55,902 nt of DNA from a virus (Duplodnaviria; Caudoviricetes), in IMG/VR virus record IMGVR_UViG_3300017699_000061, positions 1-55,902 of that record; one strand, 5' to 3'. How positions within the stretch are numbered: the first letter of the stretch is position 1; each line of letters begins with the position of its first letter. A program made the position numbers and the translations under genes. A model generated the notes under the pieces. That model searched no databases, was not told where the DNA came from, and saw only the letters and a list, made by a program, of their open reading frames with translations. Below are positions 3,249 to 52,201 of this stretch, one piece after another.

Positions 3249-5048
3249 ATGGCTCAGGGCCTTGCAGTTAGCAATATCGTCGACGTCAACATCAACATCT
3301 CTCCGATCGCGGCTCCGACGAGGAACTTCGGCGCGGCACTGGCAATCGGTTCTTCTGATGTCATCGACGTCACCGAACGCATTCGTGAGTATTCCAACAT
3401 CGACGGTGTCGCTCAGGAATTCTCGACAACGGATGTCGAGTATCTGGCGGCAGTGAAGCATTTCGCTCAGGTTCCGCAGCCCTCGCTGCTGTATATCGGG
3501 CGCTGGGCTCGTACAGCCACGCAGGCTCGTCTCAGCGGTGGCGTGCTCACGCCTGCGGAACGAGCCATCGGCAACTTCACGCCGGTGACTTCTGGAGCGG
3601 TGTATCTGGATGTCAACAACATCCCGGTCACTCTCTCCGGCCTGAACTTCTCGGCCATCACCAACCTCAACGGTGTGGCCACGATTATCGACACGGCCTT
3701 GGCGGCTGGTTCGGTGGTCTGGGATGCAATCTCCAGCAGGTTCATCTTCGAGACGACTCTGACTGGTGTCGGTGCTTCGCTCAGTTATCTGAAGGATCCG
3801 ACCGCGTTCGGTAGCATCACCTTCTCTGGTGTGCCGGCTCCGTCCGATACGGTCACACTCAACGGCGTTGTGGTCACTTTCGTCGCCTCGGGTGCCACCG
3901 GCAACCAGGTCAACATCGCTGGTTCGGCTGCCGCGCAGGCCACTGCGCTTGCGGCCTTCGCCAACGCCTCCGTGGTCGCGGGTATCGCGGTCGCCAACTA
4001 TCGCGCGGTTGGCTCGGTCGTCTACATGATCTCGAAGATCACGGGGACGGGCGGCAACGCCTATACCCTGGCGAAGGTGGGCACCAACATCGCGGTTTCT
4101 GGCGCTACCCTTGCTGGTGGCACCGGCACGTCCGTGGCGTCGCTTCTCAAGGGTCTCAGCACCCAGGCTTCGGCTCCGGTTGCCGGTGTCGATCCCGAGA
4201 CGCTGGTGCAGGCCATTGCGGCTCTGATCAACAAATCCGGCGACTGGTACGCCGGTGTGCTGGCAGATGCAGGAGTGGATAACGCCTCGATCATCGCGGC
4301 GGCTCAGCTCATCGAGGCTCAGGACAAGAAGCGGGTCTTCGGTGTCACGATCCAGGACACGACTGTTCTGGACTCGACGATCACCAATGATCTGGCGTCC
4401 CAGCTCAAGGATTTGGAGCTGCGGCGCACGTTCTCGCAGTACTCGGCGTCCAGCGCTCAGGCCATTGCGTCGTTCTTCGGGCGCGCATCCACGGTGAACT
4501 TCCAGGGATCGAACACCACGATCACCATGAAGTTCAAGCAGGAACCTGGTGTTGCGGCGGAAGTTCTGACTCAGAACCAGGCTCAGACTCTTCGCGACAA
4601 GAACTGCAATGTCTTCGTCGCGTATGACAATGAGACTTCAATCATCCAGGAAGGTGTCGTTGCCAACGGATCCTTCTTCGATGAGGTTCAGGGTCTCGAC
4701 TGGCTCGAGAACGACGTTCAGACGGCCGTCTACAATCTGCTCTATACTTCCCTCTCCAAGATCCCGCAGACGGATCCTGGCACTCACCTGATCATCACGA
4801 CGATCGAAGATCGTCTGTCTCAGGCGGTGGCCAATGGTCTTGTGGCTCCTGGCAAATGGAATGCGGGCGGGTTCGGTCAGCTCAAGCAGGGAGATTTCCT
4901 GTCCAAGGGCTTTTACTGCTACGCTCCGCCTGTCGCTTCTCAGAGTCAGGCAGACCGTGAGGCCCGTAAGGCTGTGCCGATCCAGATTGCGGTCAAGCTG
5001 GCGGGTGCCATCCACTTCGTCGACGTGACCATCAACGTCAACCGCTGA
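3249..5048 (+). CDS. Contractile tail sheath protein (DUF3383-like)
   Basis: 599 aa; LYIGRW, KFKQEPG, KIPQTD and LAGAIH motifs. Confidence 0.9.
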
Positions 5049-23047: not shown

Positions 23048-23072
23048 TTATAAGGTCTCCTCTCTGATAGTT

Positions 23073-23101
23073 AATATAGACTCGTAGATCAATAAAGTAC
23101 A
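23073..23101 (-). promoter_or_regulatory. Phage promoter
   Basis: TGTACT-N17-TATATT. Confidence 0.65.
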
Positions 23102-23126
23102 TTTCAGATATTGCCAATGCTAGATC

Positions 23127-31988: not shown

Positions 31989-32085
31989 CAGCTATTTTGG
32001 CATTTTTCGAACTATTTTTGGCCGCCCATGGAGGGTATATAGAGAGCGGCGATTTCACAAAGAACACCAAGCCTGCAAATTGAAT

Positions 32086-32114
32086 TGTACATTACCCGTT
32101 AAGCGATATAATGT
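32086..32114 (+). promoter_or_regulatory. Rightward promoter of the divergent region
   Basis: TGTACA-N17-TAATGT (overlapping TATAAT). Confidence 0.7.
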
Positions 32115-32160
32115 CATAATTCGGACAAATGTCCGGTTGCATTTCAGAGCGGAGAATGTG

Positions 32161-32853
32161 ATGCACTCTTACGAAGAACGGCCCCCTGGTCAATGGGTTG
32201 TCGTGCTATTTCCCCAGACCAAATCCAAGGACTATTCGGATGTTCGGCTTTATCCATCGCTGGACGCGGCGGTTAATCGGTATGCCAAGGCAACCCGAAC
32301 CCTCCATGTTTACTCAAGTCCTGGAGAACTCGTCCACCGCCACGGGGGCCCAGTTCTACATAAGTTCCTCACCGACATTGGTGACCAATTTTCCGACGCT
32401 CGTAACCGATACCGCAAGTGTGAGATCGGTGACGCCGAGCTGAGTGTCGCCGAAATCCACTCAAGTGAGCGTGCTAAAGTCGCCGATGAGCTGTGGCGTA
32501 TCTGCCAACTGATCGGCGACAAGTGCACTGGACCTTCAGTCGGTGTTGATGACGACGACCATTTCAAGATCCGCATCGATCGGATGACGACGCCAGAGGG
32601 TCGCGAGACTTGGGGCAAGTTTCCCAAGCAGGCTCGACAGATTATCGAGGCGTTGATCGCAAATGCCAAGTCGATCATGCCAGAGTCTGAACTTCAGAAG
32701 CTGGTGTCTGGACTCGTTGCCAACCGCATCATGAAAACCAAGCAGGATCCATGGCGGATCTTCGCTTACTACGCCCCCATGTTCGGGGATGCTGGCCTGC
32801 TCTATTATCCGGGGAAGCGCCACAAACTAGAAGACCACGAAGAAAATATCTGA
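32161..32853 (+). CDS. Hypothetical protein with C-terminal putative winged-helix domain (paralogue 3)
   Basis: PKQARQII..L...KTKQDPWRIFAYY...F...GLL; SD GGAG. Confidence 0.7.
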   Translation: MHSYEERPPGQWVVVLFPQTKSKDYSDVRLYPSLDAAVNRYAKATRTLHVYSSPGELVHRHGGPVLHKFLTDIGDQFSDARNRYRKCEIGDAELSVAEIHSSERAKVADELWRICQLIGDKCTGPSVGVDDDDHFKIRIDRMTTPEGRETWGKFPKQARQIIEALIANAKSIMPESELQKLVSGLVANRIMKTKQDPWRIFAYYAPMFGDAGLLYYPGKRHKLEDHEENI

Positions 32854-36914: not shown

Positions 36915-36937
36915 GTGAAGTCTCCTCTCTTGGATCC

Positions 36938-36966
36938 AATGTATAGTGATTTGGTTATATTGTACA
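36938..36966 (-). promoter_or_regulatory. Phage promoter
   Basis: TGTACA-N17-TACATT. Confidence 0.65.
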
Positions 36967-36983
36967 CAAGATGATGTGCCTGA

Positions 36984-39655: not shown

Positions 39656-39682
39656 GACACAGTCTCCGCTCTTGATACAAGC

Positions 39683-39711
39683 ATCCTATGTCGAGAATGG
39701 CGGAGTGTACA
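39683..39711 (-). promoter_or_regulatory. Phage promoter
   Basis: TGTACA-N17-TAGGAT. Confidence 0.75.
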
Positions 39712-39724
39712 CAACAAAATGCGC

Positions 39725-45476: not shown

Positions 45477-45888
45477 CGGTGTTCTCCTTTGTTTCCCGAC
45501 CTTGGGTCGAGTTGGCGGGATAACCTTCGAGCGGATTGTACAAACCTTGGAAAAGCAGGTTCATCATGCCAAGACGCAACATCATGTCAAATTTGCGCAC
45601 AACGACAGGATCTTTGTGATGCTCAGACTGAAGCATCTTTGAAAGATCGACCTTCCAAGCCTCGGTTAAGGTGTCGGTTATCCAACCCACCTCTTCAAGA
45701 TTAAGGTCGATTGGTAGGACCTTCATCTCTGTGTCTGTATCGGTAATTTCTTCAATCCAGTTTTCGATTTCTTCTGCTATATCTGCAATGCGATCTAGTT
45801 CCTGAATTGGTTCATTCTCGCTCTCATTGACAACAATTTTCAAAGCCGCTCGGAGGCGGGCGATCTTCAGGGCAATCGAGGTTTTCAT
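45460..45888 (-). CDS. Hypothetical acidic protein
   Basis: 142-aa ORF, coupled. Confidence 0.6.
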   Translation of the reverse strand: MKTSIALKIARLRAALKIVVNESENEPIQELDRIADIAEEIENWIEEITDTDTEMKVLPIDLNLEEVGWITDTLTEAWKVDLSKMLQSEHHKDPVVVRKFDMMLRLGMMNLLFQGLYNPLEGYPANSTQGRETKENTDASGS

Positions 45889-46112
45889 TGCATGGACTCC
45901 AACATCCGGTGAATAGCGCTAAGCAAATCCTCTGTCTCACGCAGAAGCCAAGCGCGATTGGTTTCACGCTGTTCCAGTGGGATTAGCGGGTTGACGCTAT
46001 CTAGGCCAAACCTCTGGGTCTTGCCTGCAGCTGCCAGGAATTCACCCGCCTCTTCAATGGTGTGAGACAGTCTCTTCTCGAAACCATCTTGGATAAATTG
46101 TGCATGGCTCAC
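45885..46112 (-). CDS. Small MazG-like protein
   Basis: EEAGE...A.GK..RFG ... N...L..E..DL pattern; GTG start after SD GGAG. Confidence 0.55.
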   Translation of the reverse strand: MSHAQFIQDGFEKRLSHTIEEAGEFLAAAGKTQRFGLDSVNPLIPLEQRETNRAWLLRETEDLLSAIHRMLESMQ

Positions 46113-46312
46113 AGTTTGTTCTCCGGTTCGGAATAGACCCACATGCCATTGACTTGGTCATTGGCGACGATGACGACCCATCGGCGATATCGAGTGCGTC
46201 GGTAGAAGAAACGAAGATACCAAGGTGTGGTTTCCCACGCCTTGGCCTTGATCACTATCTCTGCCACGGGCTTTGGTGGCGGACCCCCGCCCTCTGGGGG
46301 TTTACTTGGCAT
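46109..46312 (-). CDS. Hypothetical protein
   Basis: Likely start MPSKPP after SD AAGGA. Confidence 0.5.
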   Translation of the reverse strand: MPSKPPEGGGPPPKPVAEIVIKAKAWETTPWYLRFFYRRTRYRRWVVIVANDQVNGMWVYSEPENKL

Positions 46313-46529
46313 TTGGAGTCCTTGTAGCACGAAGATTTGCTACCAACGGTGTAATCTCTAGATGCGGGTTAAGCCACCAAGCACATTCATACCTAAGATT
46401 AGACTCAGACCAGCAATAAATAATCCCATTCTGACGACAAAAATCAGCTCCACTTGAGCCATCACTTGGTAGAATACCACCTTTGTCAAGTTCTTCATAA
46501 GGCTCGTTGATTTTCATTACATCAGACAT
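46302..46529 (-). CDS. Hypothetical protein
   Basis: Start re-called at MSDVMK after SD AGGAG. Confidence 0.55.
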   Translation of the reverse strand: MSDVMKINEPYEELDKGGILPSDGSSGADFCRQNGIIYCWSESNLRYECAWWLNPHLEITPLVANLRATRTPNAK

Positions 46530-46911
46530 AATAAGTCTCCTAGTTTCCCACATGACTGCCCAAATCGCGCCACCTCCTGGGATGGATCTTGGGATTGGGC
46601 AGGGTATGTAGGAACATACCATTAAATGCTGTCTACAGCTATGAAGCCATCACAACGGCCTGGTTATCCAGGATTTAACGTCGGGGCGATGAGGCGAGTG
46701 ATGCTCTGAAGGTCGGATCACTGAGTCCTCTATAGTCCGACCTATTCGGACTTCCATGTCATGCACCTGTTCCTTTCAGGCTCGAGTTCTGGATTGTGTG
46801 TTCAATGGATTGATCCCAATCCCAGTTGGGGCTTTGCTCCAACTACGCCTGTCTACAGATCCATGTCATGGGCGGAATTCCTTCCGGTTCGGCGAGCCCG
46901 TGGACAGCAGT
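46530..46911 (-). ncRNA. Large structured RNA/leader with embedded SD-led minigenes
   Basis: Long-range pairings 46857-46864 with 46582-46589 and 46815-46824 with 46590-46599; several local hairpins; two AAGGAA-N7/8-ATGACATGG minigenes. Confidence 0.55.
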
Positions 46912-47181
46912 TTACGTCAGCTGCTTTTGACGACCCGACAGGGCGTTGACCAACGCCGTGCCGGCAAGATCCGACGCAATCTGACGTTCGCGCCGAATAT
47001 CCGCTGCAACTTCCGACGGCGTCATGATGTGGTCCATCGACTGAGCGACGACCTTGACACCGGCGACAGAGCAGGTTTGAGCGAAGGCGGTGCAGTCGGC
47101 CTGGGTCTCGAACAAGAAGCTCTTGCACTGGACCATCAGATCCGTTGGGAACTCAACTGTCACCTTGTAAATGGTCTTCAT
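46912..47181 (-). CDS. Hypothetical early protein
   Basis: First gene after the promoter at 47215-47243. Confidence 0.7.
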   Translation of the reverse strand: MKTIYKVTVEFPTDLMVQCKSFLFETQADCTAFAQTCSVAGVKVVAQSMDHIMTPSEVAADIRRERQIASDLAGTALVNALSGRQKQLT

Positions 47182-47214
47182 TCTCAGTCTTTCTCTCTGG
47201 TATGCCGCTTGATT

Positions 47215-47243
47215 ATAGTAGCCTTAATTTGGCGCCTCGTACA
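47215..47243 (-). promoter_or_regulatory. Phage promoter
   Basis: TGTACG-N17-TACTAT (overlapping TATAAT). Confidence 0.7.
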
Positions 47244-47263
47244 CGTGAGAATGTGCCGAGTTA

Positions 47264-47605
47264 TTAGCCGACGTAGCCGGGCAACCGCTTGTAGTAGACG
47301 TGATAGACCAAGCCGTTGATGTCAGTGTCTGTGGACAGGTATTTCATACCAGTGGCAGTATCAGGCGAGTCGAACGGAACGCCCGTGAAGTAAGTCACGA
47401 ATTCGTGATAGCGAAGCTTGATGTTGTTGGGATCGATTTCTGCCCAAACCACGAGATTTCTACCTCCATCCTGGAATTTTGCAGTCAGGATCTTGGCTTC
47501 AGCATCCATGGCAATCTTGGTCGAGGCCTCGTGACTGAAGATATTGATCTGATACTTGTAGATGATCTTCTTCTTGACAGGGCGATCAGTCACTGAATTT
47601 GTCAT
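47264..47605 (-). CDS. Conserved hypothetical phage protein
   Basis: IYKY...A.IL....Q.....WA..DP....TG......YL.T.....V.HVY pattern. Confidence 0.7.
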   Translation of the reverse strand: MTNSVTDRPVKKKIIYKYQINIFSHEASTKIAMDAEAKILTAKFQDGGRNLVVWAEIDPNNIKLRYHEFVTYFTGVPFDSPDTATGMKYLSTDTDINGLVYHVYYKRLPGYVG

Positions 47606-49348: not shown

Positions 49349-49392
49349 AAGTCACCTATATTTACTTTGATCAGAATTTTAATCCTTTTTAC

Positions 49393-49421
49393 ACTCTAAA
49401 CCTATCATGAGCAGATGTAAA
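49393..49421 (-). promoter_or_regulatory. Phage promoter
   Basis: TTTACA-N17-TAGAGT. Confidence 0.6.
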
Positions 49422-49871
49422 CTGTTAATATGTGCCATGTTATTGTTGAAATGTAACAATATTGAATGACATCTAAAATGACTCGAAACGTATAATATAC
49501 AGGATCACTTTTGCTGTGTTTGATATTATTGATCTTTTGAAAAAGTATACTGTATAGAATTCAATAAATTTACTAGACCATGTATTTGATTTTATTATGC
49601 TATTTAATTGGGAAACCAAGCAGTATATTGTAGTTTCAAGAATTTGACAAATATTCCCTATAGGGATATTCTATAGTGACATACTTGGATTACTTTATTC
49701 AAACACTCATGGACTATAGACTTTGTGTCATTATCCTATATAATCTATTATACTATTAAAATAGTTATTATATTATAAGTACTTAGAGTATAATAGGAGT
49801 GTATAATAAATTCTAGTCCATTAGGGATCACCACCCGAAGAGACCGAAAAATGGCTCACTTTTCAAAAAGA

Positions 49872-49902
49872 ATTGTACATCTGAATATCAATAATGTACA
49901 GT
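49872..49902. promoter_or_regulatory. Fully overlapping bidirectional promoter
   Basis: (+) TGTACA-N17-TACAGT and (-) TGTACA-N17-TACAAT formed by two TGTACA palindromes 15 bp apart. Confidence 0.65.
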
Positions 49903-49948
49903 AAATCTCTTAGACCACCATGGTCTTCGAGTCCCAAAGGAGCCACCA

Positions 49949-50245
49949 ATGCTCAGGATCCCCGGCGCCAACAGCGCGGTCGTGAAGTGCGCTGACAACG
50001 GCGCAGGATACGCAGATGCTCTCGTCATTGGCGAAAACTATCACGTCATCTCGGTAGATATCGACAGCACGGGCCAAGCGTATCTTGACGTCAGCAAGGA
50101 TGGCAAAATCGTCAACGGTTGTCGAGCCGACCGTTTCGTCAACCTGGAACCAGTCAAGGGAGTTTTCGAGATACAGGATCCGTGGTCGCAGCCGGCGAGA
50201 AACTCGTCGCCTCGGCATTTCAGGTGGCTGAGTCAGAGAGGTTAA
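49949..50245 (+). CDS. Hypothetical protein
   Basis: SD AAGGAG, downstream of the rightward promoter. Confidence 0.65.
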   Translation: MLRIPGANSAVVKCADNGAGYADALVIGENYHVISVDIDSTGQAYLDVSKDGKIVNGCRADRFVNLEPVKGVFEIQDPWSQPARNSSPRHFRWLSQRG

Positions 50246-51774: not shown

Positions 51775-51868
51775 CTACAAAATGATGCCAAGCCAAAATC
51801 ATTTCAGTGTACATGGCATTCAATCCGGGGTACGCGCGCGGGCGCACGCCCGGATCTATAAAGAGACG

Positions 51869-52117: not shown

Positions 52118-52201
52118 AGCAAAACTCCTGTTGCTGTGATAACAGGATCATTCTACAACATGCTAGAAATGTGATACACAATTCGTTTGCCACAAGGCAC
52201 A

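Follow-up and report, generated by a model that had tools for sequence, protein, structure and literature searches.

A conserved, probably structured non-coding RNA between two small genes in a tailed phage operon

The DNA stretch of 55,902 nt considered here (the window), IMG/VR virus record IMGVR_UViG_3300017699_000061, contains on its minus strand a gap of 382 nt (46530-46911) between a gene for 89 amino acids (aa; 46912-47181) and a gene for 75 aa (46302-46529). The 3' part of this gap, the core (46530-46775, ~245 nt), has been retained in a related phage, represented by contig L002, and is the real unit of the finding; a preliminary description of the locus had proposed a unit of ~380 nt, which proved too long. 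From the comparison of the two sequences the core is clearly under selection, and it is probably an undescribed, conserved, structured non-coding RNA. Our preferred reading, held with somewhat less than even confidence, is that of a new cis-acting intercistronic leader, which would sequester the ribosome-binding site of the downstream gene by a mechanism that we infer from predicted folds. All coordinates of the element refer to the minus strand.

The window and L002 are syntenic over at least 5.6 kb. In L002 the corresponding gap measures 263 nt (3268-3530) and can be aligned with no more of the window gap than its 3' ~245 nt; the 25 nt which separate its core from the upstream stop codon are unrelated to the 136-nt extension present at this place in the window. 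Between the two cores 173 of 229 ungapped columns are identical (75.5%) and 56 differ. At fourfold-degenerate sites of five flanking genes, 85 of 205 positions agree with L002 (41%; 13 of 32 in the adjacent gene), which means that neutral sequence is nearly saturated and that the core has been held like first and second codon positions. When identity was recorded in bins of 100 nt, the core bins scored 72% and 83%; the latter (46601-46700) was the highest value among 56 bins covering 5.6 kb, the former being one of the highest, with coding bins ranging from 42% to 76%. Invariant or near-invariant blocks of 20, 13, 33/34 and 17 nt are present, the best-conserved one (46599-46632) having 33 of 34 nt identical to L002. 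Where the phages differ, the changes are concentrated in loops and at the tips of hairpins or, in helices, are compensated; two hairpin tips vary in length. Phage operons are usually packed gene to gene; 245 non-coding nt which are kept beyond the silent sites of their neighbours are therefore a strong candidate for a regulatory RNA.

A core without function, i.e., a younger segment shared through recent recombination between lineages, or the remnant of a decaying gene, is very improbable. Such an origin would agree with a recombination boundary at the 3' edge, where the downstream gene has been swapped and a contig from sequencing run X2 suggests a third variant of the junction, and with the existence of two instances only. 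The number of differing columns excludes a recent transfer, yet the core is far better kept than the silent sites nearby, and the placing of the differences in loops, tips and compensated pairs also speaks for constraint. Furthermore, no protein family was found in any frame, and the window DNA had no match in 50,697 phage records (blastn, megablast).

The core is non-coding. Each of the six frames has at least three stops in the window, none is open in both phages, and the alignment contains single-base insertions or deletions. Open reading frames (ORFs) overlapping the element had no match in Pfam or PHROG, so that neither a frame nor a family shared by the relatives, as expected for a protein-coding gene or pseudogene, was found. 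An antisense ORF considered as conserved is 92 aa long in L002 and broken in the window. With gathering thresholds, no Rfam 15 family matched anywhere in the window, and at E <= 10 the gaps of both phages yielded only chance-level rows for small nucleolar and long non-coding RNAs; ARAGORN detected no tRNA or tmRNA gene in the window. HDV-like, hammerhead and pistol ribozymes, a T-box and a sigma-54 promoter were considered by eye against their motifs; none of them fitted, and none had support from Rfam. The earlier proposal of an undescribed non-coding RNA has thus held up for the core.

A window stretch of 396 nt folded at -138.7 kcal/mol (z = -2.83), and one of 100 shuffles was as good. For the gap of L002, values of z = -2.34 for the gene strand and z = +0.04 for the antisense strand were obtained, an asymmetry which speaks for an RNA of the gene strand. 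Arguments for a function come mainly from the conservation, the absence of coding capacity and the strand-specific foldability.

Two helices, S1 and S2, are located towards the 5' end of the core, following a six-codon ORF termed minigene 2 (MTWKSE*, 46742-46762). The 5' strand of S1, AGGTCGGA (46736-46743), begins within the stop codon (TAG) of minigene 2 and is paired with TCCGACCT (46710-46717), which lies within the loop of S2; the 5' strand of S2, AGTGAT (46717-46722), lies within the loop of S1 and pairs with ATCACT (46697-46702). In L002, S1 reads AGGCCG/CGGCCT, with one pair changed on both sides, and S2 reads CGGGAT/ATCCCG, with all six pairs kept and two changed on both sides (alignment A6). 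The order of the strands (S1-5', S2-5', S1-3', S2-3', without spacer between the middle two) is that of a local H-type pseudoknot of 47 nt, with two interleaved helices which are both maintained in the relative. S1 and S2 are interleaved and need not be mutually exclusive, as both could be present at once in a pseudoknot; in the preliminary description they had been regarded as competing.

Further helices follow in the 3' direction. The hairpin CCTGG-ATAA-CCAGG (46659-46672) has a longer tip in L002, where four pairs are kept, one of them compensatory (T-A to C-G). Among the helices which had been named before, S1, S2 and this hairpin are thus kept in the relative with compensation, while AGTCCGA/TCGGACT is not. 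The best-conserved block contains a perfect palindrome or hairpin of 18 nt, GGTATGT-TCCT-ACATACC (46603-46620), which never varies. An alternative to it is a long 3' hairpin (46545-46614), in which TTCCTACAT (46606-46614) pairs with ATGTGGGAA (46545-46553) and CTGC (46599-46602) with GCAG (46556-46559); pair probabilities are 0.45-1.0, both helices are invariant in L002, the length of the tip varies between the phages and no run of T follows. The window-only tip of this hairpin (46560-46598) holds CCAGGAGGTGG, a second strong Shine-Dalgarno (SD)-like sequence ~40 nt upstream of the real one, which has no start codon at a suitable distance downstream.

In alignment A4, all 36 proposed pairs are paired in both phages (100%) and four of them are changed on both sides; when the same pairs were slid along the alignment as controls, 28-46% were paired, with 0-1 double changes. 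Together with S2, 42 pairs hold in both phages, six of them through changes on both sides. Covariation for the core helices is, at this level of sampling, only suggestive.

The ribosome-binding region of the downstream gene (46525-46541) comprises the SD sequence AGGAGA (46536-46541) and the start codon ATG (46527-46529). Part of it, GACTT-A-TTATGTC (46525-46537), can pair with GACATGG-AAGTC (46749-46760) in minigene 2, forming helix 1, two pairs of which are changed on both sides in L002. Four of the five changed bases of minigene 2 lie in a patch able to pair with the spacer after the downstream SD, and the spacer has changed in step. When the window core was folded alone, the 3' end of the SD, the spacer and the AUG were predicted to pair with the minigene 2 segment with probabilities of 0.5-0.73, and this pairing is present in the predicted minimum-energy fold of the core. 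For L002, the SD CAGGAGAG is predicted to be paired with the segment right after the upstream stop codon (probability ~0.95). RNAalifold proposed an alternative closing helix (columns 3-8 with 264-269), which has one double and two single compensations and overlaps helix 1. From these models, the domain may in both phages be closed onto the start region of the downstream gene, with the partners differing. A ribosome-binding context GAG(G/C)GGAGAC(T/C)T is shared by several genes of the window (36915-36983, 23048-23126, 39656-39724, 46531-46543); the sequence GGAGACTT before the downstream gene (46302-46529) therefore follows the usual pattern of the phage and is not special to this leader.

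Following the preferred reading, the core would be transcribed together with the genes of the leftward operon, having the 89-aa gene on one side and a small gene that can be exchanged on the other. No sigma-70-like promoter or terminator-like site was found within 46530-46911, and the gap also lacks a GTGTAC motif which is found repeatedly between other genes of this phage; both fit co-transcription with the upstream gene. In the 5' domain, S1 and S2 would be interleaved as a pseudoknot right after the six-codon mini-ORF, and the 3' domain would consist of multiple helices, ending in the long hairpin which abuts the SD sequence of the next gene. Pairing of the 5' end of the element with the ribosome-binding region would close the structure and should keep the gene translationally silent until the fold is opened. 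Ribosomes at the 5' end, which either terminate on the upstream gene or are engaged in translation of the mini-ORF, could perhaps provide the trigger; such an opening would correspond to the RNA-unfolding mode of translational coupling. The 136-nt extension is a lineage-specific addition, whose copies of core segments could pair with the partners of these segments in their stead. A further partner, either a protein or a ligand, is suggested by the length of the conserved blocks.

Several observations weigh against this reading. The partner of the ribosome-binding site is not the same in the two phages, and in the full window sequence a copy of the CATGACATGG motif in the extension takes the partner segment, so that the site is predicted to be mostly open. 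Since the downstream genes differ, a leader tailored to one gene product is unlikely. The antisense strand of the window stretch folds as well as the sense strand (z = -2.99), and the window core alone reached z = -1.82, with 9 of 200 shuffles as good. Covariation is not statistically established, because two sequences only are available; the helices were picked after both sequences had been viewed, and S2 needed a gap shift of one column relative to the MAFFT alignment. Shuffling with the alignment tool reached the observed values in 28 of 500 cases for the A4 helices and in 123 of 500 for S2. For a further control the 56 core substitutions were randomly re-assigned, either to random columns or to the same columns with random bases (1000 each). 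With helices of at least 5 bp kept in both phages, five double changes were reached in 130/1000 (random columns) and 74/1000 (same columns); with local helices of at least 6 bp, three double changes were reached in 4/1000 and 96/1000, respectively. Finally, the public sequencing runs which contain the window sequence are three DNA runs, and no RNA run is listed among them.

The equal folding of both window strands bears also on a different explanation, in which the element would act as DNA, i.e., as an operator for a dimeric regulator, a phage-specific promoter or a site of replication or recombination, and its palindromes would be protein-binding sites. The main argument is the perfect 18-bp palindrome in the best-conserved block; GCTGTAGACAGC is palindromic too, the pairings found only in the window are purely Watson-Crick, symmetric half-sites can also change together, and the element is situated at a recombination boundary with exchange of the downstream gene. 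This explanation appears rather improbable to us. L002 folds beyond its shuffles on the gene strand only, the interleaved arrangement of S1 and S2 and the G-U pairs in kept helices fit RNA and not duplex sites, and ~245 conserved nt are far beyond the needs of an operator or promoter. The absence from the gap of a sigma-70-like promoter and of the GTGTAC motif is a further argument against it.

The upstream gene, which is the last conserved one before the element, encodes a protein with 78% aa identity to L002 3001-3267. Its family has two members among 5.8 billion clustered proteins (lengths of 48-156 aa searched), and it had no match in Pfam or PHROG. A predicted model shows a beta-beta-alpha-beta fold with a long helix (pLDDT 71.5) and had no match to PDB folds at E <= 0.001; the best rows, i.e., phycobilisome linkers, archaeal ribosomal proteins and T7 Gp2, were not significant (E 0.06-0.3). 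The downstream 75-aa gene has no homology with its positional counterpart in L002 (3531-3758, plus strand), which is of equal length (75 aa), unrelated, and has a weak match to PHROG 2201. The following gene is homologous again (window 46109-46330, L002 3755-3919). That the downstream cassette exists in a third variant is suggested by a short contig of run X2, which departs from the window sequence at 46293; the contigs of runs X2 and X3 are short and do not reach the element.

That the element stays with a conserved upstream gene while the downstream gene is swapped would also be expected of a stand-alone or processed non-coding RNA, which acts in trans or serves as a scaffold for a protein, for example the 89-aa protein or a host factor, its position being incidental. 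The invariant blocks exceed what simple helices need, and size and multi-domain fold go beyond what is required for masking a ribosome-binding site. We consider this possibility unlikely, since no promoter- or terminator-like site bounds the element, the upstream stop codon of L002 is only 25 nt away, neither a second copy nor extended complementarity elsewhere in the genome was found, and the model of the 89-aa protein had no significant match to solved structures, RNA-binding or other.

A more far-reaching version of the preferred leader can be imagined, in which the core would be the first of a new class of large phage riboregulators, namely an intercistronic gate with a pseudoknot, portable and located at a recombination hot spot. 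Cassettes inserted behind it would be translated only upon ribosome traffic or binding of a ligand or protein, and the 5' addition of the window phage would act as an anti-sequester which re-tunes the gate. This version is speculative, and we regard it as quite unlikely.

The 136-nt extension (46776-46911) is specific to the window, and its bin 46801-46900 has an identity to L002 of 0 and a gap fraction of 1.0. It contains minigene 1 (MTWICRQA*, 46843-46869), two hairpins and the 5' arms of long-range pairings. Both minigenes read as had been described, each with AAGGAA-N7/8-ATGACATGG; this motif occurs exactly twice in the window and was not found in any of 100 shuffles. The AAGGAA upstream of minigene 1 lies in a hairpin, CGGAA-GGAA-UUCCG, in the minimum-energy fold, and this minigene has no counterpart in L002. 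Minigene 2 has one, MTYSSE*, of the same length and with an invariant lead-in, AAGGAACAGGTGCATGACAT (46756-46775); two of its six codons differ, and the Trp codon TGG is replaced by TAT for Tyr.

Arm B, ATGGATCT (46857-46864), and arm C, TGGGATTGGG (46815-46824), form the 5' side of a split long-range pairing. As claimed previously, these pieces of 8 and 10 nt are complementary to one contiguous 18-mer (46582-46599), with 18 of 18 pairs Watson-Crick, and the competing stem CTGCCCAA/TTGGGCAG, the helix AGGTCGGA/TCCGACCT and the two copies of CTGTAGACAG were likewise all present, as was every other sequence feature of the preliminary description, each at its given coordinates. All but the first base (46599) of the 18-mer lie in the window-only tip of the 3' hairpin, which consists of 39 nt in the window and of 17 unrelated nt in L002. 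Both sides of the 8+10 junction are therefore private to the window phage, present together here and absent together in L002. A split complement of at least 18 nt with this geometry was obtained in one of 300 dinucleotide shuffles, the class having been defined after the pairing was seen; a perfect stem of at least 10 nt alone appeared in 15 of 200 shuffles, and the best local matches of the 5' part to the core scored 22 and 20, with shuffle maxima of 22 and 23. Of the extensive pairing described for the gap, the fold as a whole and the split complement thus exceed shuffled sequences, whereas the single pieces are not unusual and the antisense strand folds equally. Forcing of the 8+10 pairing costs 8.7 kcal/mol (-130.0 versus -138.7); it is not part of the minimum-energy fold and its pair probability in the ensemble is 0.0.

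The extension has the look of a mosaic, in which short core segments recur as direct and inverted copies whose ends overlap (CATGACATGGA, ATGGATCT, CTGTAGACAG). Considered together with the purely Watson-Crick matching and with the equal folding of both strands, this pattern fits a fairly recent rearrangement of the DNA at least as well as an evolved RNA contact.

These results bear on the mechanism which had been put forward at first, namely a ribosome-driven switch of ~380 nt, in which Met-Thr-Trp minigenes would sense Trp-tRNA or the state of translation and toggle between the 8+10 junction and the local 3' hairpin. The split complement is real and of a length that is rare in shuffles, the 18-mer overlaps the 5' strand of the competing local stem, both partners occur and are missing together, the AAGGAA-containing motif is confined to these two places, and in the full-length fold the motif copy of the extension pairs with the minigene 2 region, leaving the downstream ribosome-binding site open. 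Yet minigene 1, the hairpin 46824-46844, both 5' arms and the 18-nt partner all belong to segments which are missing from the only relative, the junction conformer is not favoured energetically, and the resemblance of the perfect matches and mosaic repeats to a recent DNA rearrangement also detracts from it. With Tyr in place of Trp in minigene 2 of L002, sensing of Trp or Trp-tRNA is without comparative support. For an attenuator of the Trp type, conserved regulatory codons and a terminator alternating with an antiterminator would be expected; the codons are not conserved and no terminator-like site is contained in 46530-46911. Such a switch is, in our opinion, very unlikely, although a ribosome-driven switch in a general sense is compatible with the data and close to the preferred reading of the core as a leader. 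The most striking features of the single sequence, i.e., the Trp minigenes and the long-range junction, are its least conserved parts.

Some known systems show partial resemblance to the element. In leader-peptide attenuators and minigenes of the lambda bar type, a short ORF with an SD-like sequence precedes alternative RNA pairings. The arrangement here is alike in this respect; it differs in that the Trp codon is not conserved, a terminator is lacking and the second minigene is lineage-specific. The infC-rpmI-rplT operon of E. coli contains an operator with a long-range pseudoknot, which is bound by L20. Common to both is a leader or intercistronic RNA which combines a pseudoknot with distant pairings and controls, or here would control, translation of the next cistron; unlike the L20 operator, the element is without similarity in sequence or in Rfam and without a known binding protein, and its putative pseudoknot is local. 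In riboswitches with a translational expression platform, several helices make up a conserved domain, and the pairing which closes it overlaps with the next gene's ribosome-binding site, as is predicted here. Unlike in riboswitches, no known class matches the element, the gene which would be controlled is not conserved, the context suggests no ligand, and the downstream genes of the two phages are unrelated instead of being consistently associated with one pathway.

In the RNA-unfolding model, which is established according to the account in PMC12548453, ribosomes open a structure masking a downstream site. Systems of this kind (coat-lysis of phage MS2, genes VII-IX of phage f1, and rpmI-rplT of E. 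coli) resemble the present one in that the downstream ribosome-binding region is predicted here, for L002 and for the window core folded alone, to be paired with an upstream segment which ribosomes traverse or beside which they terminate. They are unlike it in that the partner of the ribosome-binding site differs here between the two phages; in addition, the spacing in rpmI-rplT is given as +52 nt (PMC12548453), whereas here 263-382 nt, with a large conserved structured domain, separate stop and start. Candidate structured RNAs have been predicted from IMG/VR (Fremin, Bhatt, Kyrpides 2023, PMC10690425), and the element resembles them in kind, these being conserved, covarying intergenic motifs upstream of phage genes in IMG/VR contigs. 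As described for that screen, models were kept only if they had matches in three or more unique regions; since the element has two, it should have been missed, and two-instance elements in general would escape large-scale screens with this demand. No known RNA family fits, and the nearest by kind are structured leaders which couple translation by RNA unfolding and the IMG/VR candidates. If the preferred reading is true, a large intercistronic element with a pseudoknot and a 5' mini-ORF would join the short list of phage RNAs which control translation at a distance, and the case would also illustrate the use of a conserved leader for downstream genes which can be exchanged.

Relatives of the element were sought among viral contigs, metagenomes, GTDB genome contigs and clustered proteins, and a single contig was found. 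Viral contigs were scanned with four DNA patterns of the core, one of the 5' extension and one of the hairpin tip, with two protein queries and with one protein alignment; the hits L002-L004 represent the same contig, which the metagenome scan returned as L005. The pattern of the 5' extension had no match elsewhere among the viral contigs. Second copies of the element in the window or in the pieces of the L002 contig were not detected by 9-mer counts or nhmmer. The hit L006 was a chance match in an AT-rich coding region, and three matches in GTDB genome contigs (up to L009) showed nothing like the element outside two anchors and were considered as due to chance.

The window is a linear IMG/VR virus record of 55.9 kb from an uncultured phage, with an estimated completeness of 69%. 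Genes for a tail sheath, a tape measure, a baseplate wedge, a large terminase, DNA polymerase, helicase and primase were recognized, and these mark it as a myovirus-type tailed phage. The DNA polymerase has an identity of at most 37% to that of any of the 50,697 deposited phages. The best of the DNA runs containing the window sequence carries the label freshwater metagenome, and the record may stem from it. The genes flanking the element belong to a long leftward operon, whose members adjoin or overlap one another in the ORF map, and for this reason a gap of 382 nt stands out. A larger one, the largest in a simple ORF map, was noted beside the start of the leftward operon (49349-50118), where 770 nt are without a minus-strand gene.

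Two neighbours of the locus on the minus strand could be assigned to families: 45885-46142 encodes a short MazG-like nucleoside triphosphate pyrophosphohydrolase (PHROG 4856, E 5.6e-11) and 47264-47605 a DUF7352 protein (Pfam PF24043, E 1.1e-14). The motif (T)GTGTAC/TGTACA recurs in intergenic regions upstream of genes at 47182-47263, 39656-39724, 36915-36983, 52118-52201, 51792-51868, 32043-32309 and 23048-23126. It may be a promoter element of the phage; at 47182-47263 it is located ~22 nt before a TATAAT sequence and is conserved in L002.

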